Shown here: in pieces, positions 1 through 50,807 of the stretch
How positions within the stretch are numbered: position 1 is the stretch's first letter
Layout of the letters: every line of letters starts with the position of its first letter
Assembly (NCBI GenBank): GCA_964514975.1
Contig: CAZESS010000015.1
Location: 1-54,957 of the forward strand
DNA: 54,957 nt
Reading direction: 5' to 3'
From: an uncultured Thermoplasmatales archaeon
GTDB taxonomy: Archaea; Thermoplasmatota; E2; UBA202; DSCA01
Made by a program: the position numbers and the translations under genes
Notes under the pieces: generated by a model
What the model saw: only the letters and a program-made list of their open reading frames with translations
Told to the model about the DNA's origin: nothing
The model's database searches: none

Positions 1-2676
1 CGATGGCACATCGAGCACCATGATGGTGTCGGGTGAGAGATATTTCGCCCAGCAGTCGATGTGCTCGATGTACTGGCCGAGTGCGTCGGGCACCACGTGG
101 TAGGTGCTGATGCCGAGGTAGTCGGCAACAGTTTGATTAATTTCGTCGGGTGTCATACCCGTGTTTTCGTCCCATACGAGCTGCGTTGATACGGCGGTGC
201 CTCGCCCGTCGGTCATGTAGTTGCCGCCCGAATGCATGATAGGCATGAAGACAATGGGGAGGCCTGCATCGGCTGCGTAGGCGCCGGGTATCGCGTCGTC
301 GTCGGGGCGTGACGGCCGGTTGTAGCTGAAGTTGACGACCTGCATGGTGTAATTTGCGCGGTCGGTGTTGTTGAATCGGAACCATGGCCCGTAGTCACGG
401 GTCCAGTAGCTGTTCGAGGGTGCGATGAGATAGCTAGTATGATTGGTGTTCACGCCGTTGCTGGCATACATCGACTCAACGGTGGTCTGCTGGCTGCTGC
501 TGTCGACGATGGTGACGACCTCGACGTCCTCGGCCATCTCGGCGATGGTGGCGAGGCTGATGCCGAAGTCGTTGGTGCCGCCGTAGTTGATGAGGACTTT
601 TTCCATGGGCTCGAACTCCGCTGGGTTGCGGAGCGGCGGTGCAACGTCGAGCGTGGTGATGTAGGGGTTTTTGTTGTGGGCGGTGACAACCAGGGAAACC
701 GTTTCGATGTCCTCGACCGGTGCATCGAAATGGATAATGGTGTCGCCGGTGGCGTCGGTGTAGTTTGCGCCCAGCAGGGTACCGCCGTGTGAGATGGCGC
801 AGAGTGCTGCCTCGACGCCTGTGACGCTGACCTCGTATTCGGTCGCGCCGCTGACCATGGTGTCGTCGTGGTCAACGGTCATATCCGCCGGGGTGTCGGT
901 GCGGATGTGCAGCGAGGGGTCGCCGAAGAACGTCCAGGTCATGACCTCGTCGACGTCACCGGGGTATTCGTCCTGCATGTGCATGGTCCCCGAATAGGAG
1001 AGGCCTCCAAGGCTGTACATGGTGTCGTTGACGAGAAGGTCGACGATTTCGTCCTGGGCGTCCATGGGCGGGCTCCATGACTGCGACTGCGAGGAAGCGA
1101 AGACGCCGATGGCGCCGGCGGGCACGCCGTTGTTGGTGGCCTTCATCCAGGCCTCGGCGAAACAGTCGCTCGAGTAGTCGAATTCGCCGTTGTTACAGGC
1201 GACGCAGACGACGTAGGGAAGCATGTTATCGTTGGTGAGGGCGTTGATGTCGGAGTTGCTGAAGCCGCTGGAACCCCACGAGGTGGGGCTACCATGACCG
1301 CAGTAGTTGACGATGCTCCGCCCGTCGTTGAGGGCGGTGGACACGTCGCTCGGCGACGGGTTGCCGGGGGCATCCTGCCCGCCCTGTGACCCGTCGTAGA
1401 ACTCGTCCACCAGGGTGTAGGTATAGTTGAGCAGGTCGTCTCTGATGATTCGCATGTGCTCGTAGTCGTATTCTCCGTCGTCGCCGGTTCCCTGGGATGA
1501 GGCGATGCCGACGCCCTTGTGGTACCAGTCGGCCGCTGCCTGTGGATATTTTTCATAGGTGATGGAGCGGTTTACCTGCGTCTGCACCTCGGCGGTTGTC
1601 TGCGCTGACATCCGGCCGACGAAGATGTCCTGGTAGTCGTCGGAGCCGACGAGCATCGCGTATTCGGGGTCGGAGGGCTGCCCGCCGTAGGTAAAGGAGG
1701 GAATCTGGCCGATGTCGCCGACGAGGAGCACGAAGGCGAGGTCGGTGGTGTTGTAGTAGTTCCAGATGTAGCTTTTGATGTCGCTGGGGGTGCTCCCGGC
1801 GGTCGAGACGTTGACCATCTCGGTGTGGATACCCTTCATGTTTTTCCAGGTGACGAAGGGCTGCATCGCTGAATAAAAGCTGTCATCGGTGATGACGAGC
1901 ATGTCGCCGTGCTCCGATACGGGGGTGTACCGGTCGCCGCGCGTATCCCCGAAGGCCTCGTTGAAGTTGATGAAATGGTTCCGATAGATGGTCTTGAACG
2001 TGGCGTCCATGGCGGTGAGGGATTCCGTGCGATGATAGACGTTGGTGGTGGCCGGGCCGGTCGGCGTTATCTCGAGGGTGATGTCGGTGTAGACGCGCAG
2101 GGTCTGCTCGACCGGGTTGTACTGGAAGGGATAGATGGTGACGGTCTGCCCGCGGACGTCTCTGGTTATGTATGGTTCACCGAGCGTTGCCATGCCACCC
2201 GGGTAGAAGGCGTCGGTGGCATAGGGTTCTCCGAACTCGTAGGGCACGGTATCCGGGTTGACGTCCCGGGTGATGTCGCCCTTCGATGGGGCGATGGCGA
2301 TGTCGTGGTATTCCTCGTATGCCGTGTCGGTGACGGTGACCGCCATGTCTCTCGCGTCGGGGATGACGATGCTTCTTGTTATTTTCGGCAGGGCGGGCAC
2401 GCCGCGCTCACGCATGGTTGACGTGTCAGGCATATGCAATTTCTGGTAGATGGTGCCCTGGATGGGTACCGGGTCCATGGTGAAATCGTTGACGGCGATG
2501 TGCATCCTGACATGGGACGGGTCTCCGTCCATGAGGCGGACGGCCAGGGGATAAGATGAGCCGTCCCCGGTTGGCTGGGTGCTTTCTGCGTGCACCGCAA
2601 CCGGAAATGCTGCCAGTATCAGGAGTGCAACCGTCAGTACGGTACCGGATATTTTATAAAAACTAGCTTGTTTCAT
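1..2676 (-). CDS. Secreted fusion: gingipain R-like C25 cysteine peptidase (propeptide, catalytic, Ig) plus Porphyromonas-type peptidylarginine/agmatine deiminase domain; 3' end runs off the window
   Basis: Not in the ORF track because there is no stop in the window. Manual translation from ATG 2676 (RBS AGGTGA upstream) is open for 892 codons. It has signal peptide MKQASFYKISGTVLTVALLILAAFPVAVHA, propeptide IAPSKGDITRDVNPDTVPY, maturation site R/YTPVSE, catalytic NYCGHGS and VACNNG, then deiminase motifs PAEFEP, WTRDYGP, GGNYMTDGRGT and EHIDCW. Confidence 0.9.
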   Translation of the reverse strand, partial: MKQASFYKISGTVLTVALLILAAFPVAVHAESTQPTGDGSSYPLAVRLMDGDPSHVRMHIAVNDFTMDPVPIQGTIYQKLHMPDTSTMRERGVPALPKITRSIVIPDARDMAVTVTDTAYEEYHDIAIAPSKGDITRDVNPDTVPYEFGEPYATDAFYPGGMATLGEPYITRDVRGQTVTIYPFQYNPVEQTLRVYTDITLEITPTGPATTNVYHRTESLTAMDATFKTIYRNHFINFNEAFGDTRGDRYTPVSEHGDMLVITDDSFYSAMQPFVTWKNMKGIHTEMVNVSTAGSTPSDIKSYIWNYYNTTDLAFVLLVGDIGQIPSFTYGGQPSDPEYAMLVGSDDYQDIFVGRMSAQTTAEVQTQVNRSITYEKYPQAAADWYHKGVGIASSQGTGDDGEYDYEHMRIIRDDLLNYTYTLVDEFYDGSQGGQDAPGNPSPSDVSTALNDGRSIVNYCGHGSPTSWGSSGFSNSDINALTNDNMLPYVVCVACNNGEFDYSSDCFAEAWMKATNNGVPAGAIGVFASSQSQSWSPPMDAQDEIVDLLVNDTMYSLGGLSYSGTMHMQDEYPGDVDEVMTWTFFGDPSLHIRTDTPADMTVDHDDTMVSGATEYEVSVTGVEAALCAISHGGTLLGANYTDATGDTIIHFDAPVEDIETVSLVVTAHNKNPYITTLDVAPPLRNPAEFEPMEKVLINYGGTNDFGISLATIAEMAEDVEVVTIVDSSSQQTTVESMYASNGVNTNHTSYLIAPSNSYWTRDYGPWFRFNNTDRANYTMQVVNFSYNRPSRPDDDAIPGAYAADAGLPIVFMPIMHSGGNYMTDGRGTAVSTQLVWDENTGMTPDEINQTVADYLGISTYHVVPDALGQYIEHIDCWAKYLSPDTIMVLDVPS

Positions 2677-2780
2677 GTGTTCACCTGCCTGATTAAGAAA
2701 AGCTATCTATTTATAACTTATGAGATGCATGTTAGCATGGTTCACTGTCGTATCTGTGGGATGGCAGCGGTTTGTGGTGC

Positions 2781-3270
2781 CTATGGGGTCCAGGTGCCCG
2801 GCGCGGTGACGTAGACGAACACACCCATGCCCCTGGTGATGGCAAACCCGGGCGGCGGCGTCACACCGACCGTGTAGGACTCAAACGTGCTGCTGGTCGC
2901 ATTCCAGTAGGCAGCGATGCTGCAATAGGGCACCGACGGGGCGAGCGAGCTCGCACTCGTTGCAGCGGCATCAAACCAGCCAATCGTGTTCCATCCCGTA
3001 AACAAATCAACCGCAACAGTTGACAATGGCGCGCCCGTCACCGAAAACGTATCGGACGTGTTCACATACACAAAGTAGCCGACGCCGTCCTCGATAGCGA
3101 AGCCATCCCCGGGTGTCACGCCAACCACGTATGACTCAAACATGCCAGCCGAGGCGTTCCAGTAGGCCACGATTTCGCAGCCCGTAATTGCCTGGCCCAG
3201 CGAGCTCGCAGAATAGTCGTTCTCGACGGGCACCGTTACCAGGTTCCAGCCGGGAGAGAAAGAAAAGATG
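2781..3270 (-). repeat. Shared C-terminal domain, copy A
   Basis: GWNLVTVPV..ASSLGQAITGCEIVAYWNAS..GVGYFVYV..GWNTIGWF..GMGVFVYVT, with high DNA identity to copies B and C. Confidence 0.9.
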
Positions 3271-4457
3271 TGGCGGACCCCGGTAATGGTGAGCGTGCTG
3301 ACCGTAAACATGGTGTTCCCGGTGCCCGCGGACGCGATGACGCCGACGGATGCGATGTCATGTCCCGTTGGCGTGTCGTCGGTCACCACCGGCACATCAC
3401 ATGCAACCGTGTAATTCCCTGATGCGTTGGTGGTCGTGGTCCATGTCATGTCGGCGCGCGGGATGGTGACCGTGACGGTTTCATTCGACACCGGGATACC
3501 GGTGGACGTATTGTAGACACCACCCGTTATCGTGACGGTGTCCCCAGCCTGCGCCGTCGACGGCACGAGGTGCTGGGTTACCGTCACCGGCGGGCTGACA
3601 TGGCTGTACCCGGTAAGATTGGCATGTATCCGCGTGGTTCCGTTCGGCGAGGTACCGTTCACGATGTACCTGGCGGTGTTTTCGGCATCCGGCGAATACC
3701 AGGACTGCTTTGAACCATTGGTGCCGCCCCGGACATACAGCGTGGGCAGTGTCCCGGCGGGAACGGTGACGGTTTCCGTCCCGTTGCACATATGCGGCAT
3801 CGTTTCCTGCTGCTGCCCGGCGAAGGTTTCGTCGACCAGACCCTGCACCCAGATGGAGCCCGACGTGTTGGTCGTTGAAGATACCGTCCAGCTGTCGCCC
3901 ACCTGCAACGGAAAATCATATTCCTCCGCCGGCGGATGCTGCGAGCCGTTCACATGCGCTACGTAGTCGAGGTCGATGACCTGATGGATGACACCGGTGG
4001 AGGTGATGTTGTATGAGATGAGCGACAGGTCCGCCCGGCGCATGTACAGGTCGCCGGTGATAATGCCGTCCATGGGGCCCGACATGCTCTGGTAGGAGAT
4101 CTGGCCGGTTATGTTGCCGGTGAGGTTGAGAGCATATGCATCATACGTGGTGGCATTCTGCGTTACCAGGGTGATACCGGCAACGCTGACGGTGAGGTCG
4201 GTGATGGTGCCGTCGAACGAGCCGTTGGGAGAGTCCAGGTATACGTCGGCGTTGTATGTCCATACGTCGCCGATCGACCATGCCGGCACATCTGTCTCAT
4301 TCGATGCAAAAGCAGGAGCCGAAGCAGGAGAAGAAAGAGAGAAAAAAAGAGGGGGTGAAACGGGGACGGCAGCCGCCGGTATGCCGACGAGGCACATCGC
4401 TGCTGCTACTGCCAGAACTGTGGTAACAGCCGCATGGCGGGATACCTGTCCCTTCAT
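2781..4457 (-). CDS. Secreted protein: beta-rich N-terminal domain with VTVPAGT motif, Ig-like domain, shared GWN-repeat C-terminal domain
   Basis: 558-aa ORF with hydrophobic signal peptide and many N-x-S/T sequons. The C-terminal ~165 aa match three other ORFs in the window. Confidence 0.8.
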   Translation of the reverse strand: MKGQVSRHAAVTTVLAVAAAMCLVGIPAAAVPVSPPLFFSLSSPASAPAFASNETDVPAWSIGDVWTYNADVYLDSPNGSFDGTITDLTVSVAGITLVTQNATTYDAYALNLTGNITGQISYQSMSGPMDGIITGDLYMRRADLSLISYNITSTGVIHQVIDLDYVAHVNGSQHPPAEEYDFPLQVGDSWTVSSTTNTSGSIWVQGLVDETFAGQQQETMPHMCNGTETVTVPAGTLPTLYVRGGTNGSKQSWYSPDAENTARYIVNGTSPNGTTRIHANLTGYSHVSPPVTVTQHLVPSTAQAGDTVTITGGVYNTSTGIPVSNETVTVTIPRADMTWTTTTNASGNYTVACDVPVVTDDTPTGHDIASVGVIASAGTGNTMFTVSTLTITGVRHIFSFSPGWNLVTVPVENDYSASSLGQAITGCEIVAYWNASAGMFESYVVGVTPGDGFAIEDGVGYFVYVNTSDTFSVTGAPLSTVAVDLFTGWNTIGWFDAAATSASSLAPSVPYCSIAAYWNATSSTFESYTVGVTPPPGFAITRGMGVFVYVTAPGTWTP

Positions 4458-4463
4458 CGTTGG

Positions 4464-4965
4464 CTACAGGCCCTGTCCATTCCAGACGCCCGGGCCGGTG
4501 ACGTAGACGAACACACCCATGCCCCTGGTGATGGCAAACCCGGGCGGCGGCGTCACGCCGACCGTATAGGACTCAAACGTGCCGCTCGACGCGTTCCAGT
4601 AGGCAGCGATGCTGCAGTTTGGAACTGCCGGGGCGAGCGAGCTCGCACTCGTTGCAGCGGCATCAAACCAGCCAATCGTGTTCCAGCCCGTGTACAGGTC
4701 AACCGCAACGGTTGACAATGGCGCACCGGTCACCGAAAACGTATCGGAGGTGTTCACATACACAAAGTAGCCGACGCCGTCCTCGATAGCGAAGCCATCA
4801 CCAGGGGTGATACCCACGACAAATGACTGGAACATGCCAGCCGAGGCGTTCCAGTAGGCCACGATTTCGCAGCCCGTAATTGCCTGGCCGAGGGAACTCG
4901 CCTTGTAGTCGTTGTCGACCGGCACCGTTATCAGGTTCCAGCCCACAACGAGGTCGAATTCGACG
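4464..4965 (-). repeat. Shared C-terminal domain, copy B
   Basis: 4747-4957 matches 33496-33706 at 210/211 nt by manual comparison. Confidence 0.9.
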
Positions 4966-6081: not shown

Positions 6082-9000
6082 TTAGGGCCCGGCGTTCCCG
6101 AATATCCGTATGTTGAGGATGGTTGCCGTAATCTCTTTCACCGCACGGTTGCCGGCGACATCGTAGGCCTCTATGGTGATGGTGTGCTCGCCGAACAACG
6201 TTTCATCGAGGACGTAGGATATCTCTTCCTGGAACATGCCCTTGGCGGTGCCGTCGAGATACAGGGTTGCACTGTCAACACCGGATGTAGCCGGGTCTGT
6301 GACGCTTGCCTCGATCGAGATCTGCCCGATGATGATGGTGCGTCCACGTGGCAGCGGCATGATCTCCCGGTTGAAGATGTAGAGGTTTCCGCCGGGCTTG
6401 TGCAGCGTTATCTCGGGTGCATCGCCGTCTATCTTCACCGTCTTGGAATGCGGGGTTTCCTCGTTGTCCTCTGTGTCGACCGAGTAGTAGCTGATGGTGT
6501 GCTGGTCGTGCTCCCTGATGGTGAACGGCCCGGTGTACTCGTTCCAGTCGCCGTCGTCGATGCGGTAGTAGGTTGTCGTCGCGTCGCCATCTGGATCGGT
6601 GGCGCTGAGCATCGCCGTCACTGCACCGGTGTACCAGCCGTCGTTGCCGTCGGGCGACGACGGGTTCAGGGTGATGCTGGTCTGCGGTGCCTCGTTGCCG
6701 CTGATGTAGACGGTCGTGCTCGCGGTCGGCGTCTTCTGACCGGTCTGATGGATGCCGTAGTAGTAGATGGTGTAGGTGCCCTCGTCCAGCGTGAATGGGG
6801 TGTAGTAGCGGCTGTATTCACCGGTTATCTGTGTGCCCTTGTTGACCCGGTACCATATCTCCGTGATGCCCATGCCCTGTGCCTTGTCGAAGTCGAAGCC
6901 TATCTTGGTCTCCGTGGTGATCTCGTGTTTGCCGTCAACCAGCTCGTGTGGCCCGTCGAAGAAGATCAGGTCCGTGATGTCTCCCATGGCAACTCTGAAC
7001 TCGATGACATGGTGCGGGGTTTCCTCGTTGCAGGCAAGGTCGACCGCCCAGTATTCCAGGGTTATCTGGCCGGGCGTGAAGTGGAGGTTGACATACTGGT
7101 TGACATCTCCGGTCTTTTCGGCGCCGCCGTTTATCCTGTAATGGATCTGCCAGGGGTTGTCGTCGTCCTCTGCCTTGATGGTGATCTTGGTGTTCGGCGT
7201 GGGGTTGCTGTTCTCTATCCAGGTCGGCGTATGCCAGGAGGTCGGCGGGGTGCTGTCAGACATGTCGCTGGCGACCCAGAAGGTCTCGTTGTCGTAGCTG
7301 ACGTGGCCGAGGCCGTCGGTTGCCCTGATATCCAGCGTGTGGATGCCCGTGGTCGGGAAGTTGAACACATAGGGGTTGGCAACGCTTGTCCAGGCGCCGC
7401 CGTCAAGGCTGTACTGTATCGCCAGCGCCGGGCTTGCATCGGTGGCGCTCAGGATGATGTCGGTGCCGGTTTCCACGACCCAGTCGTTGTACGAGCAGCC
7501 GGGGTCGCTCGGGATGCCGACGGTCTTGTTGATATCCGGCGGGGTGTCGTCGACGATGAAGGTCACGTTGTCGTAGCCGGTGTTGCCGAGCTCGTCGGAT
7601 GCGATGATCTCGAGGTAGTGGACGCCCTCACCGCTAAGGGTGATGGTGTACCGGAGCGGCGTGACGGTCGTCCAGTTCGACCAGCTGCCGTTGTACCAGG
7701 TGCGGTAGGTGATGTTCTTCCAGCCGACGCCGCCGCTGCATCCCTGGTCGGAGGCGGTGAAGTCGATGACGGTGCTGCTGGTGATGTAGTATTTATCACC
7801 CGGGAACACGACGACCTTGGGCTCGCCGACGGTGTTCTCTATCGCGGGCGGCGTGTTGTCGACCTTGACATCTCTGGTGTGATGGGTGCCCTCGTTGCCG
7901 AGGTTGTCGACCGCGTACCATATGAGCGTGTGGTTGCATTCAACCGGGATGCTGAACGTTGTCTGGGTGGCAGCGACGCTGTACCAGCTGGTACCGCCGT
8001 CGTAGCTGTACACAATCTCGGCGATGCCTGAGGCACAGGCCGGATACTCGGTGGTATTGATGTAGATGGTGGTGTCCGAGGTGATCCATTCTGTGGTGCC
8101 GTCGGTATAGTACGGGGTGCCAAGCTCAAGGGTTGCCGTCGGAGCGGTGTCGTCGACGTTGACATCGGTGAAATGATGGGTTTCCTCGTGACCGAGGTTG
8201 TCGACCGCGTACCATTCGATGCTATGGGTGCACTCGTCGGGGATGTCAAACGTCGCCTGGCTGCCAACAACGGTGTTCCAGCCGGCGCCATAGTTGTACC
8301 ATATCTCCGCGACGCCGGATGCACATGCCGGATGATCGGTTGCGTTGAGATATATCGTCGTGTCCGGGGTGATCCATTCCTCGGTGCCATCGGTGTAATA
8401 GGGCGTGCCATATTCGAGCGTGGTTGATGGTGCAGCGTCGTCGACGTTCACCGTCTGCGTATGCGTTGTCTCGGTGTGACCGAGGTTGTCGACCGCATAC
8501 CATTCAAGGGTGTGCGTGCAGTTGTCCGGGATGGTGAACGACACGTCGCCGGACGCGGTCTGCCATGTTCCGTTGTATGTATAGTATATCGTGGCGACGC
8601 CAGAGGCGCAGGCAGGTCCGTCGGTTGCGTTGAGATATATCGTGGTACCGGTGCTAATCCAGGTATCTGTGCCATCGGTGTAATGCATGCCGCCGTACTC
8701 AATCGTGGTCGATGGCGGGGTGCTGTCAACGTTCACGTCGGTGGAATGGGTGGTCTCGGTGTTGCCGAGCTCGTCGACCGCATACCACTGGATGGTATGG
8801 CTGCATTCCGTCGGGATGGTAAACGTCTCGTTGGCATACACGGTATCCCAAGTAGCGCCACCATCTGTGGAATAGTTGATCCAGGCAACACCAGAGGCGC
8901 AGGCCGGATGGTCGGTGGCGTTGAGGTAGACCGTGGTGCCCGTGGTTATCCATTCGTCGCCGCCGGAGGTGTAATAGGGCGTGCCATATTCGAGCGTGGT

Positions 9001-12000
9001 TGTCGGTGGGGTGTCGTCGACATGGAAGGTCTCGTTGTCGTAGACGGTGCGGCCCATCGCGTCGGTGATGGTGACGTTGAGCCAGTGGTCGCATTCGCTG
9101 TCAAAGTAATGCACGTAGGGCAGGCTGCCGGTGATGTCCACCCAGCCGCTGCCGTTGTTGTACATGACGGTCATGTCGCAGCAGCCGGTCTCGGCGTCGA
9201 TGGTGATCGGCGTACCGGTTGTGACGTAGTACTCGTCACCCGGTGTAACCGTCACGTTGGGGTCGCCGACGGTCTTGTAGAGCACCGGCGGGTAGTCGTC
9301 GACATGGAAGGTCTCGTTGTGCCATCCGGATGCCGGCCAGCGGTTGCCGAGGTTGTCTTCGACGTAGAACTCCAGGTAATGGGTGCATTCCTCTGGCAGA
9401 TATATTTCCTCGCTGATGGTACCGCTTGGCACGCTCTCGTTGTAATATGTCCATGAGCCGTTGTACCATATCCTGTAGTGGAGATGCACGGAGCCAACGA
9501 CACAGTCAAGCGTGCCGTTGTCCGTGGCGTTGATCCATATCGGCGTGCCGGTCTCTATGCAGTATTCATCCAGACCGACCATCATCTTGGGCTCGCCGAC
9601 TTCCTTCGTCACATCGGGCGGGGTGTTGTCGACCATGACATGCTGCCGCCATGAATCCTCCATATTGCCGAGGTTGTCGAAGCTACGTATCGAAAACCGG
9701 TGCAAACAGTTATTGTCGTCGCCAAGGGAGGAAAGGTTAAATGCGCCGGTATACGGCGTCCATGCCGTGACGGTTTCCCAGCTTGCTCCGTTCCACCGGT
9801 TGATATAGTATTCTATGTGGTCAACACCTGATGCGCATCCGACAGTGTTGTCAGTCGCGTTCAGATATATCGGTGTTTCAGACGTGATATAGTGGTCAAG
9901 AGTACCAGTAAAGTAAGGTACATTCCAATAGACCGGGGAACCCACATAGAACGGCGAACCATATTCCTTTTCAGTGGTCGGAGGGGTATCGTCAACATAA
10001 TGGGTCTGATAGATGAGGGTGCTTTCATGGCCAAGGTTGTCAACAGCGTATGCCTCAATGGTGTGCTCGCATTCACCGTTCCAGACAAAGTCACCAAAGG
10101 TGAAGGTGGTGTTACCATAGGTCGTATAGGTGTGCCATGAACCGTTATAGTAGATACGGTAATTGAGCTCGGCGATGCCAGAGGAACAACTGCCGGCGTC
10201 GCTGACGTTCAGCCAGAATGGGGTATCAGAGGTGACATTTTCGCCGTACTGCGGCATGCCGACATCCTTGTTGACGGTCGGTTTGATGTTGTCGACATTG
10301 ACGGTATAGTTGTATTCCTCCCATTCGCCCATGTTGTTTGTAATATTGTAGTATATCGTGTGCGTGCAGTTGTCCATGACGCCGATGTCATCAAAAGTAA
10401 AGGTCACGTTGCTGTTCCAGGCGCCAGTATGCCAGCTGCCGTTGTTGACATTGTAGTATATCTGGTAGTTCGTATGTGCCATGTCGCCGGTCGCATTGAT
10501 ATAGATGGGCGTATACTTGGTAATATAGTCCATGTAGTAGGGTGAACCAAATTGCAGGGTGGCATCGGGCAGACCACCGCCAACATGGAAGCCCCATGTG
10601 CGATAGCCGCTGGACGGGAAGCGATTGCCCAGCTCGTCCTCGATCCAGTACTGGAGACGATGCGTACAGTTTTCGGTGAAGTCGATTGAGACGTTGCTGC
10701 CAGATGTGGCCCACGGCGTCCAGGTACCATTGAACTGTGTCCGGTAGTGGATGGTGAAGTTTCCGACCGCGCAGTCCGAGGCAGGCATATCGGTGGCGTT
10801 CAGCCATATCGGGGTATCGAGCGTGACATAGAACCATGAGCCGGACTGGAAGCTCGGGCTGCCAACGTTCAGGTCTTCATCTGGAGCACTATCATCAACG
10901 TATAGCTGTCGGAAGTTATGCGGCGTCTCCTCGTTGCCGGCATAGTCGGTCGCCCAGTACTCGATGGTATGGTTGCATTCCTCGATTATGGTAATGTTGA
11001 AAGGCTGCATCAGGGTGCCGTCACCCGATTGTACCAGCGTGGTGTTGTCACGCCATATCCGGTAATGCATCTCCCACATACCGACAGCCGGGCAGCCGGT
11101 GTCACTGCCGTACATGAGAAGCCAGGTATCGGTCGTGATATGTGTCGCGGTGGATGTGTCATGCGGGTACTTGGGATCGCCAATCTCCAGCGACGACGTG
11201 GGGGGTACGCTGTCGACATAGAATGTCTCGTTGTGCCAGCCAGTTGTCGGCCAGCGGTTGCCGAGTTCGTCTTCCACCCAGTACTCAAAGTAGTGGATGC
11301 AGTCTTCGCTGAAGCCATAGGAGAAATTGGTGTCAGTGGTGGTGTTGACGAGGTATCCGCCATCCCACCAGATGCGGTAGTGCAGTGTCCAGTTGCCCTC
11401 GGAGCAGTCGGGAAGCTCGGTCACATTGAGATAAACGGTGGCATCATGGTTGACATAGTAGTTGCCGGTGCCGTCGTCGTAGCCGCCGCCGACAACCGTC
11501 TTGTTCACCAGCGGGGGCGTAGAGTCAACATGGAAGGTCTCGTTGTCGTACACGGTGCGGCCAAGGCAGTCATATGCCCTGATGTCAAGGGTATGGGTGC
11601 ATTCATCGTTGAAGTTGAACACGTAGGGCACCGTGATCTCCTGCCAGGCGCCGCCGTTAACACTGATTTCCACGGTCATGCCCGGGCAGCATCCCGGATC
11701 GGTAGCATCGATATATATCGGCGTCAGCGTGGTCACATAGTATTCTTCATCCGCTGTCACCGTGATGTTGGGGTCGCCCACGGTTTTGTCGATACTCGGA
11801 CCGACGTCGTCCACGTAGAACGTCTGGTTGTGGACATAGTACGGAGATGGAAGGTCCATCGCTGGCGGGGTTGGCGGAGTCGGGCAGGGTCCAATGCTAA
11901 CTGCGCTGCTCTCCCATGGGTCATAGTCGATGGAGCCGTTGAGCCTGTCCTGTATCTCGCTTTCCACGGTGGTATCCCACCAGTTGTTCTCCGCGTCCAT

Positions 12001-15000
12001 TGTGTCTGTCTCATAGTTCTTTAATGCAAGTGCACCGGGTTCAGCGCCGCCATCGTAGAAGTTGTTGTAGTGGAATTCTATGGTACTGACATCGCATCCT
12101 GTTAACGCACGGGCCGCATTTTCCTCTTCAGGCGAGAAGTTGTTGTAGTAGAAGGTGTTGTATTCAACGCTCACGTTGTGGGAGCCGACCGGTCCGTAGC
12201 TGGTGCCCCAGAGAGCCAGTCCGTAGGACGGGTAGTAGTATCCGGAGTAGGGCCAGTATGGCGAGGGGCCGATGTACTGGAAGGTGTTGTTGGTGATTGT
12301 TCCACCGCGCACGTTTATCTGGGCACCATGGTAGCTGCAGTTTTCGAAGAGGTTACAATGCACCTGAGCGTCAATCAGGTTGTAGACGTTGATACCTGTG
12401 CCGCAGTCATGGATATGGTTGCCCTTGATAACCGGGTTGTGGAACTCGAAATCATTCGGGTCGCCGCCAGCGAAGATACCGTAAGAGCCATCCGGGTTCT
12501 GGATATCGTTGTACGACACTTCAACATCGGTGTAGGTGATGAAATCTGTGAACCCACTGGTGAAACCAAGTTCCGCATTGACATATCCTGGGCCAGGGGC
12601 ACTTGGATTGGTTGCACTGGCGTTAATCCGATTGTGGGTGATGACAATGTCCTCGAAATAGCCGCTTCCCGTGGAATCAGTACCAGCATCCGGGTCATGA
12701 CCCACAGTGATGCCGGACCAGGCATACGTCGAATGGACATAGTTGTACGCCAGGACGACGTTGCTTCTCGTCGCATTCACCGGACCGCGTACATCGATGG
12801 CCGTGTAGAAGTCGATGACTTCAAAGCCGTTAAAGACAACATTGTCTGCCCTTATTACGACGGTGAAACCGGTTGTGGTCGGGCTGGGATCGGCGATGGT
12901 ACTCTCGCCACCGCTCCGGCCGCCCTCTACGGGCTCCACGTTGGCCTGTGCACCGTATAGAGAGAGTTCCTTGTCAATTGTGATTGCTTCGGTATATGTT
13001 CCTGCATACACATAGATGGTGTCGCCGTCGCTCGCTGCATCGATGGCATCCTGGATGCTGTCGAAGTGGGTGACGCCCCAGCCGGCCGTACTGGCATCGA
13101 AGTCATCGTCGACGTAGTAGGTACCAGGTGCAAGGCCATAGTTCCCGAGGTCGTCCACTGCATAATATTCAATGTAATGCTTGCATTCATCGGGTACCGT
13201 GAAGCTCACGTTGGAGTTCAACGGGCCGCTCTGCCATGCTCCCCAGCCACCGGTCATGTCCCATATACGCCAGAAAATCTGGTAGGAACCGACCGCACAG
13301 TCGCCAGCGTCAGTCGCATTCAGATAGATCGGCGTCGTCGTCGTGATACACCGGTTGCCGTCACAGACACCCGTCGGGTTGCCATATTCCTTGGTCACCA
13401 TCGGCGGTGTGTCGTCGACACGGTAGTGCTGATAGTAATGCATGGTTTCCGTGCCCAGGTCGTCAACCACATACCATTCAAGCATGTGCTCGCATTCCTC
13501 GTCAAAGGAAAACATGACGCTGCTGTTCATCGGCCCAGTAGTGAAATCGGGAATCGGGTCGCCGATCTTCCAATAGCGGTAATATATCTGGTAGGAGCCA
13601 ACCGAGCATTTGCTGAGGTTGTCGGTCGCGTTAATCGTTATCTCCGAGGTCGTCGTGACATACGTGGTATAATGGAAGGTGACGGACAACGAAAGCGATG
13701 AGCCAGAGGCACTGCCCGTGAACTCGCCTTCGAAGTACTGGCCATCATAGGTGCCGTCGCCGGTCGCATAAATTCGTCCATGCGTGGTGCTGGGGAATCC
13801 GGTGTGATCGGTGACATAGGTGCCGTTGAACCATCCGCCAGAGCCGTCAGACCAGGTGAAGGAGCCATAGCCGAAGCCCTGGGTCGCATAGGTCCCGTTG
13901 GTCGGTATGAACGAGTTGTGATACATGGTGATCGTACCCACCAGAGCGCCGGTCGTCGTGCCGCTCCATTCCTGTTCAGCCCAGAGGACACTTGTCAGCG
14001 GGTCGGGCAGCACGATGTCGGAGCCAAAGACCTGCGGTATCCAGAATCCCGCTGGCTCACTGGTATACCACTCGGTTTCACTTGACAAGCTGGCGCTCAC
14101 GGTCATCGTCTCGTTTTCCATGTACATGGGACCGTCGTGTTCCTTCCAGGTGACAGGTGGGGTGTTATCGACCATGACATGCTGTAGATGTGATGACTCG
14201 ATATGGCCGAGTTCATCGAAGCTGCGCACCCTGATGCGGTGCAGACAGCTATTGTTATCGCCGATGGATGAAAGGGTAAACGGCCCAGTATATGTATCCC
14301 ACGATGCAACGCCTTGCCAGCTCGAGCCATCCCACCGGTTGATGTAATACTCTATGTGGTCGACACCGGAGGCACACATGCCGGGGTTGTCCGTGGCGTT
14401 CAGATAAATCGTGGTGTCAGACGTGATATAATGGTCAAGGGTACCGGTGAAGTATGGTACATCCCAGTCCACGGGTTCGCCCTCATAATATGGCGTGCCG
14501 TATTCCTTGGTGGAGGTCGGCGGGCTATCGTCAACATAGAATGTCTCGTTGTCATACACGATGTTGCCGACGCAGTCATAGGCCCTGATGGACAGGTTGT
14601 GCATGCATTCATCCGGCATATAGATGGTGTCCGAAACCGTTATCTCCATCCAGCCGGAGTCATAGGTCGCATTCCAGATGCGGTATTCAACGGTCATGCT
14701 CGGGCAGCAGCCGGCGTTGGTCGCATCAATCGTAATCGGCGTGCCCGTGGTCACATAGAAATCTGGCATGCCGCCGCCGGGTATGTTCGGCGTGCCGACA
14801 GTCTTGTCTATCGTGGGAGCCGAATCGTCGACATAGAAGGTGATATTGTGGATGACGCCGTCGCCGTTGCCCAGCGAGTCCTCGGTGTAGTACTCAAGAT
14901 AATGTTTGCATTCCTCGTCAAATGTCAGGATGAGATCCTGGTAATATGTCCGCTGCCAGGTCGTCCAGGTACCGTTCCATATACGGTACCATATCGAGCT

Positions 15001-18000
15001 GTTGTCCGCCGCGCAGGGCGCACCAGGATCGGTCGCGTTGACATAGATGGGCGTGGCAGTGGTGACGCATGCATACGGCGTGTTGGTGGTATAGGTCGCT
15101 CCGTAGATGGTGCCGTCGTTGCCGTCCTCGACATCGGTGGCGGTGGAGCCGCTGCCCTCGTTGAAGTCCCACCATGAGACAAGGTTGGATGTCACAACGT
15201 TCTGATTGTAGTTGTTCTGGACATCGGCAGCAGAGAGCGCATCATCGTAAATGCGGACATCGTCAATCGCTCCCTCGAAGCCTAAATAGGGAGGTGGGCT
15301 GCCGTCAGCCATGCATCCAATGTACAGTTCGTTGCCGGTGGTAACAGCGCCAACTGTGCCGGCTGCGGCACTCGAATCAAGCGAGCCATCAATGTAGAGC
15401 TCAATGGTTCCGCCGTTTCTGGTGGCAACTATGTGGTGCCACTGTCCGTCGTTGATGGTAACACTCGACGTCAGGCTTGCACTGTTCGTACCGTCATCGA
15501 TGAGCCAGCGTATCCGGCCGCTGCTCTGCATCTCAAGGTCATAGGCAGGCTGCCAGTTGCCAATGGCGTTCTTGCGGACGATGCCGCCTCTGCTGTCCGA
15601 GGAGGTCTGAATCCATGCTTCGACGGTCCAATCAGATGAACCCATGTCGAGCGATGCGGCATGAGGGACTTCGACGTAATTGCTGCCATTGAAGTCAAGG
15701 GCGTAGTTGCCGCAGGAGGGCTCGCCTCGCTCGATGGCGCTCGACGGCGGGGTGTCGTCGACATAGAACGACCTGTTGTGTATGGTCGTCTCGGTGTTGT
15801 CCAGGTTGTCAACCGCATAGTATTCGATGTAATGTTTGCATTCCTCGTCAAAGGTGACATGGACAACGTCGCCGATGCCGCCAACCTGCCATGTGGTCCA
15901 TCCATCGGTCTGGTTCCAGAGCCGGTAATGGATACGCCATGAGCCCACGTTGCAGTCGCCATAGATATCCTGAGCGAACAGGGTAAGCTCGGTCGACGTC
16001 GTAATGTAGGTGGCTCCCTGGCTCTGCGGCCACTTGGGATCGCCGACCTGCAGGCCGGACTGCGGCGGGGTGTCATCGACCCGGTGGGTCTGGTTGGTCA
16101 CCGCTTCCATGTTGCCCGCGTTGTCGTCGCTGTAGAACTCGAGGTAATGGATGCATTCACCGCTCAGGGTGAAGTTGCCCGTGTACACCATGAAGTTGTC
16201 GTTGAGACCGACGCCGGTGCTCGGGGCGGGCGTCCATGCACCATTGTACCATACACGATAATAGGTTGCGTTGACGCCGGAGCCGCCGGACGGGTTGTCC
16301 ACGGCGGTGAAGTTGAACTCGGTGCTCGATGTGACGTAGTTAGCTCCACCTGTCGGACCCCATTTGGGCTCCCCAACCGTCTTGGTGGTCGTGGGCGCCT
16401 GGTTGTCGGAGCCGCCGGCCGCATGGGGCGAGAGATGCCAGACATGTGCCCAGACGTAGCCGATGTAGGTGCCATCGAAATAATCGGTGTTCACGCCGGT
16501 GACGTTGCAGAGCTGCCATTCCCCGGCGGTTCCATTCCAGAAGAAGACGCCCTGCAGGTCGCCTTCGTCGAGGCCGGAGGCAGTCAGGTCGGCCGCCGTA
16601 TAGTATATTGTAATATTGATAGGCCAGTCGACACCGCTGGTGTCGTTCATGCTCACGTCGACAAAGGTGCCGTCGAGCGCGTAGCCGCCCACGGCGTCGC
16701 CCTCGGGGTTTTCCTCGTATTTGAGCGTGGTGACGCTTGCGGGAGTCGAGGTGTTCACGGTGACCGTTGTCCCGGTCTCGTCCTTGCCGCCGGTCGTGGT
16801 CTCGGTGCCGGCGGGCACGTCCTCATAGTAGGAGTCCTCGACGCCGGATTCCTGGCTGTTGTTGTAATCGTCGTCAGGCCATGTGTCGTCCAGCCACGGC
16901 CGGAAGTCAACGTTATCGGACACGTTGTCGCCCTGACCGTACGGGGTGTCGGTCGCGTTGTGATACGGACCAGTTGAATGACCCCACCAGTTGTAGGTGG
17001 CGTTAACCACGGTTGCCGCAATATTCAAAACGCCATAGTGTCTGTTTCCGTAGATGTTGTTGTTATGTATCTCCGTCCCGGTGACCGGGTGGAGGTAGTC
17101 ATCTATGCCGCTGCCATTGCCGTTATTATAAATATTATTCTTCTCAACGGTTACATTGAAGGTGTTCAGCAGAACCCCCATCTTGCAGTCGGATACAGTA
17201 TTACCCGATATAAGATGGCCGCCAACTGTTCCGGTTGAGGTGACGCCATCCCCGGTAATCCGGATGCCATATCCGTTATCCAGCGACTCTGGCGGGTCGT
17301 AATACGTTCCCCATGTATAGAAATAATCAACCAGATCTGGGCTCCCGGTAACCGTATTATTGACAATGGTGGTGTTAACCGCATCGTATCCGGCATAGAT
17401 ATTATAATAACATCCGCTAATCGTGTTTTCTGCTATGACGTTATCCTGCTGGCCATCTATATTCGCATCGTCCCACATATTGATGCCATACCAAGCAACG
17501 TCTTTCCCGTCAATCGTATTGTTCACGATGCGGTTGTCGTTACAGGCCACCCCCTGAAGGTCGTATTGCCCGCCGGACAAATGGATACCATAATAGAAGT
17601 TTTCTATAACGTTGTCCATAATGGTGCAGTTACTCGAGCCAAATAAGAGAATCGAATTCATAAGATATGGATTACTAGCTCCGTCAGCATAGATATCTCC
17701 GCTCGTCGCATTCAAAATGACATCTTTGATAGTGAGCCCCTGTATAGTGATGTTGTCACAGCCGCGGATGTAAAACCCGGGATGAACATGCGTGGTCGGA
17801 GAACAAGGAGGTGCCTCGCCTGTTTGTGCCGCATTGATTATTGTACTCCCTGGCCCTTCCACTGATTGTATCGTAATATCTGTCTTATTATCCATATAGA
17901 CGTTTTCTAAGTATGTCCCGGGGTAGATATCGACCATCGTGCTCGTCACGTTGTCAATGGCATCCTGTATGCTAGCCCAGTATCCATCAGCACCATCTAT

Positions 18001-33215: not shown

Positions 33216-33715
33216 TCATCCCTGCCCGTTCCATGTGCCCGGCGCGGTGACATAGACAAACACGCCCATACCCCTGGTAATGGTAAACCCGGGCGGCGGC
33301 GTCACCCCGACCGTATAGGACTCAAACGTGCCGCTCGACGCGTTCCAGTAGGCAGCGATGCTGCAGTTCGGCACCGACGGGGCGAGCGAGCTCGCACTCG
33401 TTGCAGCGGCATCAAACCACCCGACCGTGTTCCAGCCCGTATAAAGGCTGACGGACACGGACGAAATCGGAAGCCCGGTCACCGAAAACGTGCCCGAGGT
33501 GTTCACATACACAAAGTAGCCGACGCCGTCCTCGATAGCGAAGCCATCACCAGGGGTGATACCCACGACAAATGACTGGAACATGCCAGCCGAGGCGTTC
33601 CAGTAGGCCACGATTTCGCAGCCCGTAATTGCCTGGCCGAGGGAACTCGCCTTGTAGTCGTTGTCGACCGGCACCGTTACCAGGTTCCAGCCCACAACGA
33701 GGTCGAGGGCAACGG
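33216..33715 (-). repeat. Shared C-terminal domain, copy C
   Basis: Near-identical at DNA level to copies A and B. Confidence 0.9.
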
Positions 33716-36692
33716 TCTGCGCTGCGCTTATCGTCATCGAAATCGGCGTGGACCATGTGCTTTCGGCACCATGGTTATCCTTCGCCCGGGCTCGCACGAC
33801 GTATGACCCATTGCTCGACCAGGCATGGGAAAACGTGTACGGTGTCCCCGAGGCAAATGGGCCGACCCAGTCGCTGGTCGTGCCGTCGCCCCATTCAACG
33901 TAGTAGTAGAGGTCGTCGCCGTCCGGGTCGGTGGCGCTCACCGTGTACGAATACGTGGTACCAGGCGACCCGCTCGCTGGACCGCTCAGCGACGGCGTGG
34001 CCGGCGGACTGTTGGTGGTCAAGATACCGCCGGAGTAACAGGTGATATGCCCGTCTCTGCCGCCGGCGACCATCTCGGCGGTGCCGTCGCCGGTAACGTC
34101 GGGAATTGCGGCGAGGGCGTCAACGGGAGACGTGTAGGGGACGGGCGTATGGAGCTGGGTGCCGTCGGTGCCGTCGAAGAAATAGCAGTAGTTGTTGCTG
34201 TACAGGGTGCCGATGAAGACGTCGTTGACGCCGTCGCCGGTGACATCTGGTGCAGCGGCAACGGAATGGCTCTGGTCGTACAGGGACTGTGTCCATATCT
34301 GGCTGCCGGTCTGACCGTCGATGACCATGGCCGTGGAACCGGTATGCGATGGAAGGATGTCGGGATGCCCGTCGCCGTTGACATCGCCGAGTGTATCGAA
34401 GCGGAGGATGAGCGTGGAGCCGATGGTGGTACTGTAGAGCTGGCTGCCGTCAGTCGCGTCGAGGCCATAGATGTTGCCGTAGCTGTAGAAGTCACCGATG
34501 ATGACGTCCCGGATGCCGTCGCCGCTGGCATCGTCTATTTCCGCGAGCGCCCAGACCGAGGTGCCGGGAACGGTAATGCTCCAATAGGTGCTGCCGGTGG
34601 CGCCGTCGATGGCGAACACATATCCTGTCGTTTCAGCCTCGTTGGAGGCGCCGGCGATGACGTCCGGCTGTCCGTCGCCCGTGGCATCCTGGATGCCGAT
34701 AACCGAGAACACGGGGCCGCCGAGCGGGCATTTCCAGATGGCGGTACCGGTGAGGCCGTCCAGACAGTAGACCCGTTTGGGTCCGGTGTCGTCGCTGTCG
34801 TCACCGGTGGCGGCGAGAACGTCTGCGACGCCGTCGCCGTTGTAGTCGTAGGTGCAGTCCACGTCATACACCCATCCGCCATTCCCGTATTCATGGGTGT
34901 CATACCGCCAGATGGTTTCACCGGTCCGGGAGGACAGCGTGTAGATTGACTTGTCGCCCCAGGGCGTCCCCACGACGATGTCAGGATATCCGTCACCGTC
35001 GACGTCGGCCTCCGTGGTGGCAACCTCCTCCTGGCGGTAGATGGAACCCGAGTATATCTCTCGCTCCCAGAGCACCGCCGGCTCACCGTCCGCGTTTCCG
35101 TTGAGACAGCGGATGTAGTTGTCCTCGGTGCAGAGAACAACATCTGCGACACCGTCGCCGTTGACGTCGGGGATGGAAAGGATGGCCTTGGCGCTCAGGT
35201 CAATCGGGCCCTCGGGGACGTCATAGTCCCATATCGTCGAGGCGATCGGATATGTCTTGTATTCGCCTGCCCCCTGCACGGATACCAGGTAGGGGTCGTC
35301 GTCCGGGTCGTTGCTGTCGATCGACAGCGTACCCGTATACGTCTCGTTGGCTGCGGGCTGGAACCAGACGGGGATGCCAACGGATTCCAGCGGCTGTAAG
35401 GTCAGCGGAAGTGAGACGGTGTCACCGACGATGAAATTGCTGTCGCTGCTGTTGATAGCCGTGATGTTCAGCGATGCATCGCCATAATTTTTCACGTTCA
35501 TCGTCCAGCGTCGATAGGCGTTGACGCGGATGGTGCCATAGGTATGCGAGGACTCCGGAACATGGATGCCGGGCCCATCATAGGTGCCATGGCCGGTCAG
35601 CGATATCTGCACGGTGGGATGAATCGGGTCGTCGCATGCCACGGTGGCGATCGCATTCAGGTCGCTCACATCGGTAGGCGCATAGTTGAGGGGCACGGAG
35701 AGCTGGTTGTTCGGTGCGATGGTAATCGGGAACGAGATACCACATGACAGGTAGGACGAGCCGGCGCCGCTGAAGGATACACCGGTAAGCTGAAGAGGAG
35801 CACTCCCGATGTTTTTGACCACCGCGTTCCAGGTCGCCTGTGTGCCGATGGTGACCAGCCCGTAGTCATGGCTGGGCGTCAGGAGCTGTATCTCCGGCGT
35901 CCCCCCGCCATAGATATCTATCTTGTACAGGTTGTCCATGCCGCCCTGTCCCTCATCGCAGTACCAGAGATAGGTGCCATCCCAGACCACGCCGGCCGGG
36001 CGGGAATATTCGGATTCATGGCTGTACACGACCGAGCCCGTGCTGGCGTTGACCTGGTACAGGGTGTCAGCCCAGTAGTCGGCCACCCAGAGCGTGTCAT
36101 TGTGAACGCAGAGGTCCCATGGCTGGTCGTCCGGCGCCGGATAATCAGTGAGAATGGTTCCCTGGTCGTCCACCTTGTAGATGTGTCCCTCGGGGTTGTA
36201 ATAGGTGGAAACCCAGAAGTCGCCGTCGTCATGGGCGATACCCGACATATACCGGTCGGGAAGATCAAACGTCGCCGTCTGTGTGCCGTTCATGTCGAAC
36301 TGGATGGCGGTGGCGGGGTCGCTCGGATGGTCAGTGGTCCAGAAATGCGTGCCATCATGGGTGAGGCCGTATGCATCTCCCTGCGGACCGGTGCACTGCA
36401 ACGTGTAGCTGCCCGTGGCGGGGTCGATGCGGTAGACCTGGTCACCGTTTGAGCCATAGATGCCGCAGTACAGATAGGTTCCATCGTAGGCAAGGCCGGA
36501 TGCCCCGTCAGGTATCTGGTATACATCGAGAATGGTCCACGCCCGGTCGGACTGCAGGGGTGCCATCTGGTCCTGCACGGAGGCATCCTCGGCTCTGGCG
36601 CCCATGGGTGCATGTTGCACCGTGTTCGCCAGCACAAAAACAATGCCCACACATATCACAATGCCCAATAAACGAGATGTCTTCCCACACAT
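33216..36692 (-). CDS. Secreted multidomain protein: N-terminal beta-propeller, two ASH/choice-of-anchor-D-like Ig domains, FG-GAP/PQQ-like repeats, PKD, shared C-terminal domain
   Basis: GLAYDGTYL/GLTHDGTHFW propeller blades; KNIGSAPLQLTGV and KNYGDASLNITAI; repeated D(V/A)xGDGxxD(V/I); YYVEWGDG. Start moved to MCGKTS after RBS GGGGAG. Confidence 0.85.
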   Translation of the reverse strand: MCGKTSRLLGIVICVGIVFVLANTVQHAPMGARAEDASVQDQMAPLQSDRAWTILDVYQIPDGASGLAYDGTYLYCGIYGSNGDQVYRIDPATGSYTLQCTGPQGDAYGLTHDGTHFWTTDHPSDPATAIQFDMNGTQTATFDLPDRYMSGIAHDDGDFWVSTYYNPEGHIYKVDDQGTILTDYPAPDDQPWDLCVHNDTLWVADYWADTLYQVNASTGSVVYSHESEYSRPAGVVWDGTYLWYCDEGQGGMDNLYKIDIYGGGTPEIQLLTPSHDYGLVTIGTQATWNAVVKNIGSAPLQLTGVSFSGAGSSYLSCGISFPITIAPNNQLSVPLNYAPTDVSDLNAIATVACDDPIHPTVQISLTGHGTYDGPGIHVPESSHTYGTIRVNAYRRWTMNVKNYGDASLNITAINSSDSNFIVGDTVSLPLTLQPLESVGIPVWFQPAANETYTGTLSIDSNDPDDDPYLVSVQGAGEYKTYPIASTIWDYDVPEGPIDLSAKAILSIPDVNGDGVADVVLCTEDNYIRCLNGNADGEPAVLWEREIYSGSIYRQEEVATTEADVDGDGYPDIVVGTPWGDKSIYTLSSRTGETIWRYDTHEYGNGGWVYDVDCTYDYNGDGVADVLAATGDDSDDTGPKRVYCLDGLTGTAIWKCPLGGPVFSVIGIQDATGDGQPDVIAGASNEAETTGYVFAIDGATGSTYWSITVPGTSVWALAEIDDASGDGIRDVIIGDFYSYGNIYGLDATDGSQLYSTTIGSTLILRFDTLGDVNGDGHPDILPSHTGSTAMVIDGQTGSQIWTQSLYDQSHSVAAAPDVTGDGVNDVFIGTLYSNNYCYFFDGTDGTQLHTPVPYTSPVDALAAIPDVTGDGTAEMVAGGRDGHITCYSGGILTTNSPPATPSLSGPASGSPGTTYSYTVSATDPDGDDLYYYVEWGDGTTSDWVGPFASGTPYTFSHAWSSNGSYVVRARAKDNHGAESTWSTPISMTISAAQTVALDLVVGWNLVTVPVDNDYKASSLGQAITGCEIVAYWNASAGMFQSFVVGITPGDGFAIEDGVGYFVYVNTSGTFSVTGLPISSVSVSLYTGWNTVGWFDAAATSASSLAPSVPNCSIAAYWNASSGTFESYTVGVTPPPGFTITRGMGVFVYVTAPGTWNGQG

Positions 36693-36769
36693 GGTGTAAC
36701 ATCTCCCCGGCATTTTTAACATTTTCTAACGCATAATGAAACCTGCATGATGCATGGATAGAAAAAGGG

Positions 36770-50733: not shown

Positions 50734-50807
50734 ATCGGCACATCCAGCAATGCAACATAAGTGTTTCCATACCACGCCATATATAAAGCAGGTGATGTTA
50801 TCGCGAT

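Follow-up and report, generated by a model that had tools for sequence, protein, structure and literature searches.

Architecture of the precursor

The window considered here is a complete contig of 54,957 nt (C15, GenBank CAZESS010000015.1; G000:C15:1-54957) from the 1.96-Mb genome, G000, of an uncultured Thermoplasmatales archaeon. At its beginning lies a gene for a gingipain-type peptidase of family C25, followed in the same frame by a deiminase resembling PPAD, the peptidylarginine deiminase of Porphyromonas gingivalis. Nucleotides 1 to 2676 of the minus strand form a single open reading frame (ORF) of 892 amino acids (aa), with its ATG at nt 2676 and an open 3' end: base 1 of the window is the end of the contig as well, and the gene runs off it. 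The feature is a C25 peptidase/PPAD-type deiminase precursor, 5'-complete and 3'-truncated, as defined by the ORF, by Pfam and by matches to the sequences of solved structures. The original prediction, made from the letters alone, had described one continuous frame here; indeed, there are no stop codons between the domains, and the protease-deiminase junction lies, as assembled, in one frame without a frameshift. Its remark that the ORF track misses the gene fits as well, as frames running off the source end are listed only when open ends are included.

The predicted series of domains (signal peptide, C25 propeptide, RgpB-like domain, immunoglobulin-like (Ig) domain and deiminase) was recovered by Pfam and by structure-sequence matches, the signal peptide by eye. 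This last element (~aa 1-30, nt 2587-2676), MKQASFYKISGTVLTVALLILAAFPVAVHA/E, resembles the Sec type, with likely cleavage after VHA. The gingipain prodomain follows at aa 53-238 (nt 1963-2520; Propeptide_C25, E 2.9e-36, 125 bits; RgpB prodomain 4ief_A, E 5.9e-38), and then the catalytic domain at aa 259-590 (nt 907-1902; Peptidase_C25, E 4.5e-59, 201 bits against a cut-off of 23). The sequence of RgpB (1cvr) matches aa 250-674 with E 2.6e-78, while the match to Kgp is far weaker (E 1.9e-17). The Ig-like domain Peptidase_C25_C occupies aa 596-675 (nt 652-891; E 1.8e-11, 44.2 bits).

The deiminase domain begins at about aa 678-685 (nt 624-645), close to the predicted start at ~635, and its N-terminal half fills aa 685-892 (nt 1-624; Pfam and 4yt9 alignment). 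PPAD (4yt9) matches aa 678-891 with E 4.9e-50. PAD_porph matches aa 685-887 (E 1.3e-17, 64.5 bits against a cut-off of 25), covering only positions 3-207 of the 321 in the profile, so that the domain is cut by the window end. All four Pfam matches exceed their gathering scores, including the three profiles that had been named for a search (Propeptide_C25, Peptidase_C25 and PAD_porph).

Homologue alignment places an inter-enzyme linker, PPLR/NPAEFEP, at nt 607-639 on the minus strand. Its Arg683 (nt 628-630) is a candidate maturation site that could permit self-cleavage into two enzymes. The idea is weak, because Arg683 is kept in all 13 aligned homologues, stand-alone ones included.

Active-site residues

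For the protease, residue roles follow the description of RgpB in PMC9559808 (the Cys244-His211 dyad, the S1 anchor Asp163 and the pocket residues). In the 1cvr alignment, RgpB His211 corresponds to the catalytic His461 (nt 1294-1296), Cys244 to Cys494 (nt 1195-1197) and the charge anchor Asp163 to Asp404 (nt 1465-1467); Trp284, Met288, Val242 and Gln282 of the RgpB pocket are also kept. The junction of prodomain and catalytic domain, DR/YTPV (nt 1918-1935), has the conserved Arg-Tyr pair: the first residue of mature RgpB (residue 1 of the 1cvr chain) aligns with Tyr250, preceded by Arg249. Arg-specific autocatalytic cleavage at this junction is plausible. The predicted protease active site and S1 pocket are intact and of the Arg type.

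In the deiminase, the motifs that had been read by eye (WTRDYGP, GGN and HID) were located as YWTRDY at nt 391-408, GGNYMTDG at nt 205-228 and QYIEHIDCW at nt 49-75. In PPAD numbering, and with the roles given in PMC4893104, the first holds Trp127 and Asp130 and the last Tyr233, Ile234, His236 and Asp238. YNRPSRP at nt 304-324 holds Arg152 and Arg154, the residues that bind the free C-terminal carboxylate. An extra Ser stands between these two arginines, as it does in the Cys-bearing homologue P0001.

The fusion and the gene pair in other genomes

The fusion recurs in each collection surveyed. Among the 120 best proteins listed for the window protein, nine carry both PF01364 and PF04371, and the nucleophile motif TDA[LI]HCR is present in all eight of these that were fetched. 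Many C25 proteins of sedimentary Thermoplasmatota among the matches listed share ~55% identity with the window protein. Within 39 genomes of the same order, G000 included, the C-terminal half of the deiminase was found in five genomes besides G000, and all five read TDALHCR. Fused forms are encoded by G004 (same genus, 67% identity), G028 and G037; in G014 and G019 the domain stands alone, preceded by a signal peptide of its own.

A scan of JGI metagenomes, in which the best 80 of 212 relatives were analysed, gave 7 fused and 73 stand-alone loci. All 80 keep the His-Cys pair, three of them in the variant motif DDAIHCR. A separate same-strand C25 ORF was present within the fetched locus in 44 of the 73 stand-alone cases; judged by the listed coordinates, 36 of these ORFs lie 300 nt away or less, mostly directly upstream. 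In species genomes (80 of 92 relatives kept), fusion of the two domains is confined to loci titled Thermoplasmatota (4 of 19, against 0 of the 61 others). Adjacent C25/PPAD pairs occur in 10 of the 19 Thermoplasmatota loci, 2 loci of other archaeon-titled genomes, 7 of 31 Bacteroidota loci and 1 unclassified bacterium; as adjacency was detected by phmmer with the archaeal domain of the window as query, the bacterial counts may be underestimates.

Apart from the assembled continuation of the window gene (C64, below), readable nucleophile motifs in all catalytic-domain homologues have Cys, with the exception of a single Tyr. Specifically, 75 of the 80 species-genome loci read His-Cys, one (L126) reads His-Tyr and four have no readable motif. 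Three of these four are without every PPAD motif and were probably matched through the Ig domain alone.

A midpoint-rooted FastTree phylogeny of 159 deiminase domains groups 20 of the 21 fused rows, some of which repeat a sequence from another collection without change, into a single clade of 32 rows (SH-like support 98), beside archaeal clades of adjacent pairs. The remaining one, P0026, is placed apart among bacterial rows, suggesting a second, independent fusion event.

The fusion is thus real, recurrent and evolutionarily meaningful. It is a Rosetta stone of the conserved same-strand C25-to-PPAD gene pair, from which it derives, and this pair backs the Rosetta-stone logic that had been proposed.

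Some individual loci deserve a separate description. L126:3-4772 (+) encodes a fused Thermoplasmatales C25-PPAD protein reading TDAIHYR, with Tyr for the nucleophile Cys, and YNQPMP, with both carboxylate-binding arginines lost; by its sequence it is a second, independent Cys-less fused form. L105, a 3,463-nt contig titled Candidatus Bipolaricaulota, holds a PPAD-like domain sister to that of G004 (SH-like support 99) and 59% identical to C64, the continuation of the window gene described below; it is either a mis-binned short contig or a recent transfer. The fused proteins P0003 and P0007 have dockerin type I repeats at their C termini (P0003: PF00404, E 2.4e-4, just under cut-off), a hint that some archaea may tether the protein to a scaffold with cohesins. 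Two other fused proteins, P0002 and P0008, end in an unannotated twin module, to which we return with the genomic surroundings.

Continuation of the gene beyond the contig

The product of the window gene continues from C15 into the collapsed contig G000:C64, of 1,070 nt. C15 and C8, a third contig, both begin with exactly the 55 nt in which C64 ends; by contig comparison, nt 1-55 of the window thus form an assembly-graph vertex where the contig breaks. The other end of C64 has a 55-mer in common with the end of C47. C64 is open throughout in one minus-strand frame of 356 aa, still open at its end, and this frame extends the window protein exactly, with the overlap at CWAKYLSPDTIMVLDVPS. Its aa 1-228 align to chain residues 196-421 of PPAD (E 5.5e-48), that is, to the remaining catalytic domain and the Ig-like domain of PPAD; PAD_porph scores 36.3 bits against the cut-off of 25. 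The catalytic Asn297 is kept, and a BACON/Ig-like stretch follows the PPAD-aligned part. No C-terminal sorting domain of type IX secretion is present in the 892 + 356 aa assembled, the true C terminus lying beyond. PorU sortase models match only the common C25 fold (68.7 bits against a cut-off of 420).

At the start of C8 (C8:1-2790, minus strand) lies a paralogue built in the same way, which encodes a C25 peptidase of greater divergence and then the N-terminal half of a deiminase. C8 is identical to C15 over nt 1-55 exactly and ~70% identical from nt 56 on. We compared the copies at 111 invariant columns taken from an alignment of 13 homologues. In the N-terminal half of the window deiminase 0 of 60 invariant positions are changed, catalytic and substrate-binding residues included. 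The same half in C8 has 18 of 60 changed, among them Trp127>His, Arg152>Gln, Arg154>Asp and Asp238>Thr, and looks like a degenerate pseudo-deiminase. C64 as assembled has 7 of 56 changed, including His>Asn and Cys>Arg at the nucleophile site (Fisher p = 0.005 against the window half). In a leave-one-out control other rows change 0-6 of ~95-117 positions, and P0026 17 of 128.

Identity to the same-genus orthologue in G004 is 80.1% for the N-terminal half of the window deiminase, 64.8% for that of C8 and 67.4% for C64. If C64 belonged to the window gene, the drop of 12.7 points from the N- to the C-terminal half would exceed all 55 control pairs (mean -3.4, sd 3.7, minimum -12.2): by these figures, the divergence of C64 is out of range for the window gene and fits C8.

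Logan contigs of four runs were aligned to C64 at 85% likeness. The run richest in the sampled words, X1 (0.89 of them), may be the source sample itself and is hence not independent. It covers C64 with single pieces at 1-377 (depth 29.9), 456-631 (depth 24.2) and 847-1070 (depth 22.3), and with two pieces each at 348-485 (depths 11.4 and 13.8) and 602-876 (depths 12.3 and 13.6). The latter region contains the Cys codon site at 734-739; the alternative piece is also 275 nt long, and over its core, 632-779, the resemblance to C64 is too low for an alignment at 85%. Run X3, from another study, has a similar joint (634 to 780) beside a C64-like piece. The additive depths in X1 lead us to read C64 as a collapse of two paralogues, of which the assembler retained a single version. 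Over most of C64 the 3' ends of the two genes would be the same, presumably owing to gene conversion; they would differ in two patches, and the nucleophile lies in one of these.

An exact search of metagenome contigs with 30-nt anchors for the second version of C64 632-779 gave 0 matches, and a protein-alignment scan of metagenomes gave only relatives of 53% identity or less. P0121, the best of three short-protein matches (61% identity, TDALHCR), is a genus-type relative that differs in the common anchor and hence is not the second version. Judged by the divergence of the copies, the assembled Arg version is rather probably that of the degenerate gene on C8, and the window gene would carry the unseen one.

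A proposed coupled enzyme and its alternatives

We propose that the window gene encodes a secreted Thermoplasmatota zymogen in which an RgpB-like peptidase and a PPAD-type deiminase, joined in one frame, act in a coupled manner. This reading as a whole is moderately probable. The order of parts would be a Sec signal peptide, a gingipain-type prodomain, the RgpB-like peptidase with its Ig domain, the PPAD-type deiminase with the PPAD Ig domain, Ig/BACON-like modules and an unassembled tail. After export and removal of the prodomain, the peptidase would cut proteins, possibly detrital ones, after Arg. The tethered deiminase, with its pocket for a free C-terminal carboxylate, would then turn the new C-terminal Arg into citrulline and release ammonia. 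Possible benefits are the release of nitrogen, the loss of a positive charge by which the product might rebind the S1 pocket, and an altered uptake of peptides.

A number of observations weigh against this proposal. In the protease, RgpB Glu152 is replaced by Gln395 (nt 1492-1494) and Thr209 by Cys. The nucleophile site on C64 reads TDGLNRR where PPAD has TDALHCR: Cys351 has become Arg and the preceding His Asn, through plain substitutions in the Asn-Arg codons at 734-739, without a frameshift on inspection of the DNA. The C351A variant of PPAD is inactive (PMC4893104), and the Arg-bearing C64 is the only assembled sequence downstream of the window. The invariant changes of C64 are distributed over its parts as 3/22 in the common stretch 847-1070, 1/12 in the bubble flank, 3/11 in the bubble core and 0/14 in the rest. 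Three of them (Y>H, E>D and Y>H) fall in parts common to both copies, and on this alignment the C-terminal half of the window copy is not pristine. Contig depth does not measure copy number. The second version, which the searches did not retrieve, may also be without the Cys; its assignment to the window gene comes from divergence patterns, not from reads across the 195-nt stretch common to both copies.

In the most serious alternative, the window deiminase is dead, with Cys351 replaced by Arg as assembled, since a recent gene conversion from C8 would have overwritten the 3' half of the gene. What remains would be an Arg protease with a pseudo-deiminase in a structural or non-catalytic role. 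Apart from the TDGLNRR of the only assembled continuation, most of C64 is common to both paralogues at double depth and diverges like C8, so that, on this view, conversion from C8 into the window gene has demonstrably occurred around the nucleophile stretch. Pseudo-deiminase domains also exist in fused relatives, namely C8 (18/60 changed) and L126 (Cys>Tyr, both Arg lost). On the other hand, the intact 60/60 invariant positions in the N-terminal half of the window copy are unexpected unless the loss was very recent. The second, equally deep version of the nucleophile stretch in X1, with the similar joint in X3, is what one would expect if selection keeps one copy intact. A role of the Cys-less domains in binding or capturing C-terminal Arg is not favoured either, as C8 and L126 have also lost the carboxylate-binding Arg152 and Arg154. 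On balance we regard a dead window deiminase as unlikely, and think it fairly probable that the window copy is an active deiminase.

Of two predicted claims only a part stands. An extension of the contig had been expected to reveal the catalytic Cys: the only assembled extension reads Arg, an outcome named beforehand as one that would refute the prediction, although C64 is collapsed and a second version of the nucleophile stretch exists. The protein had also been taken for an extracellular cut-and-citrullinate enzyme. Such an activity is likely for the family, whose homologues keep the Cys, while the assembled continuation of this very copy has Arg.

The naming of the domain as a possible agmatine deiminase does not hold. 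Were it an agmatine or free-arginine deiminase of polyamine or arginine catabolism, its fusion to the protease would be accidental. Pfam PAD_porph does span both agmatine deiminases and PPAD, control genomes match it, and there are weak matches to models of the agmatine deiminase AguA. Yet the agmatine-deiminase-like structure 1xkn matches the window protein with E 2.5e-7 only, against the far stronger matches of PPAD to both halves. The AguA equivalog TIGR03380 stays below its cut-off on C64 (17.9 bits against 381.8), and the NCBIfam profile search gave no match of the AguA model on the window protein. Arg152 and Arg154 as well as the Ig domain of PPAD itself are present, and the domain is part of a secreted protein that has an Arg-specific protease in the same chain. 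Given the PPAD E-values, the AguA score, the two arginines and the PPAD Ig domain, the domain is assigned to the PPAD type, predicted to act on C-terminal peptidyl-arginine, and an agmatine deiminase is very improbable here.

That assembly or binning has joined two separate genes into a chimera, as the position at a contig end and the continuation in a collapsed repeat might suggest, is harder still to believe, with the protease-deiminase junction (nt 600-650) well inside C15 in one unbroken frame and the same architecture in many independent assemblies.

Genomic surroundings

The host, a sediment or mat archaeon, is archaeal as predicted: the window holds archaeal Orc1/Cdc6, Topo VI-B and RtcB genes, and relatives of the same order are titled Thermoplasmatota. 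With 28 Peptidase_C25 matches, each of them above cut-off, G000 has a greatly expanded set of gingipain-type peptidases. Its PAD_porph matches are restricted to C15, C8 and C64.

The window gene is the last of a same-strand run of large secreted proteins. Directly upstream in this run lies a giant ORF of 4,616 aa (nt 6082-19932, minus strand) with Laminin_G_3 and NosD/beta-helix matches. Further away, at nt 49129-50886 (minus strand), is a homologue of Peptidase_M14 zinc carboxypeptidases (E 6.8e-08); carboxypeptidases also act on peptide C termini.

A twin module of ~140 aa (GWNL.TVP...ASSL...GC....W.A....F.SY.VG..P..F.I..G.G.FV, twice) is carried by 23 ORFs of G000, and in 21 of these 23 large ORFs it ends 0-7 residues from the C terminus. 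In the window it occurs at nt 2781-3230 (-), 4464-4900 (-), 33216-36722 and 36770-42523; elsewhere it is found on two paralogues of the C25 family (contigs C9 and C7). It also ends P0002, P0008 and the stand-alone PPAD-like proteins of G014 and G019. Neither Pfam nor NCBIfam has a match for it, and its position recalls a sorting or anchoring domain. Two antisense ORFs at nt 2772-3023 (+) and 4434-4715 (+) translate almost identically, being shadows of the twin modules at the C termini of the two neighbouring genes. The high similarity of these modules suggests that the two genes have undergone gene conversion as well.

Discussion

In P. gingivalis, Rgp and PPAD are separate enzymes: the first cuts after Arg, and the second converts the new C-terminal Arg to citrulline and ammonia. 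RgpA and Kgp of the same bacterium combine a C25 protease with downstream non-protease domains in one secreted precursor, where these modules are haemagglutinins/adhesins; in the window protein the downstream module is a second enzyme fold.

The closest known counterpart of the protease part is RgpB (MEROPS C25; 1cvr, 4ief), with which it has in common the order of prodomain, catalytic and Ig domains, the dyad, the S1 anchor and the Arg-Tyr junction. It differs by its archaeal host, by the deiminase in frame behind it, by the exchanges Glu152>Gln and Thr209>Cys, by the lack of a type IX C-terminal domain in the part seen, and by being one of 28 C25 matches in its genome. With PPAD (4yt9, 4ytb, 5ak7) the deiminase part shares the catalytic and Ig-like domains and the residues Asp130, His236, Asp238, Asn297, Trp127, Tyr233, Arg152 and Arg154. 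In contrast to PPAD, it is the C-terminal part of a protease precursor and not a separate protein, has one extra residue (YNRPSRP) and no bacterial sorting domain, and in its assembled continuation has Cys351 replaced by Arg and the His before it by Asn.

Extracellular C25 'gingipain' peptidases are reported to be present and highly transcribed in sedimentary Thermoplasmatota (Thermoprofundales/MBG-D; PMC6461988). These belong to the same phylum and the same family as the peptidase described here, and their presumed role is likewise the degradation of detrital protein. In the main text of that paper 'deiminase' and 'citrull' have 0 occurrences, and an adjacent or fused PPAD partner is not described there. 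One of the highly transcribed C25 genes it reports is on the same scaffold as our locus L118, in which a C25 fragment abuts a PPAD-like gene; the fragment may be that transcribed gene. We found no description of a C25-PPAD fusion or of an archaeal PPAD in open-access papers or preprints, and domain-architecture databases may list the combination. The fusion is new as a variant of a known two-enzyme system, Rgp and PPAD, so far described as separate enzymes of a gum-disease bacterium.

A broader picture can be drawn, which we advance tentatively and rate somewhat below an even chance. The C25-to-PPAD pair, adjacent or fused, would be an old and widespread extracellular module that cuts after Arg and then citrullinates, used by anaerobic protein degraders such as Thermoplasmatota, Bacteroidota and Cloacimonadota, and Rgp/PPAD of P. 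gingivalis would be a medically visible offshoot of it. The fused archaeal forms would repeatedly spawn pseudo-deiminases, and the paralogues found here would have been homogenised by gene conversion except around the nucleophile.

Abstracts of medical papers call PPAD unique to Porphyromonas. The 212 relatives in the metagenome scan and the 92 in species genomes make up, instead, a broad environmental family of close PPAD homologues, one whose genes are coupled to those of gingipain-type proteases and, in Thermoplasmatota, joined with them to encode single proteins. The fusion is the strongest genomic argument that the successive reactions of Rgp and PPAD are an evolved functional unit and not the peculiarity of one pathogen, and it offers a single polypeptide in which protease-deiminase coupling is biochemically testable. 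In the Cys-less copies (C64 as assembled, C8 and L126), nature provides pseudoenzyme variants of an enzyme under medical study. For the biogeochemistry of sediments and mats, the proposal predicts that Arg-specific extracellular proteolysis is accompanied by the release of ammonia and by citrulline-ended peptides. If the broader picture above is true, C-terminal citrullination would be a general and overlooked step of environmental protein degradation.

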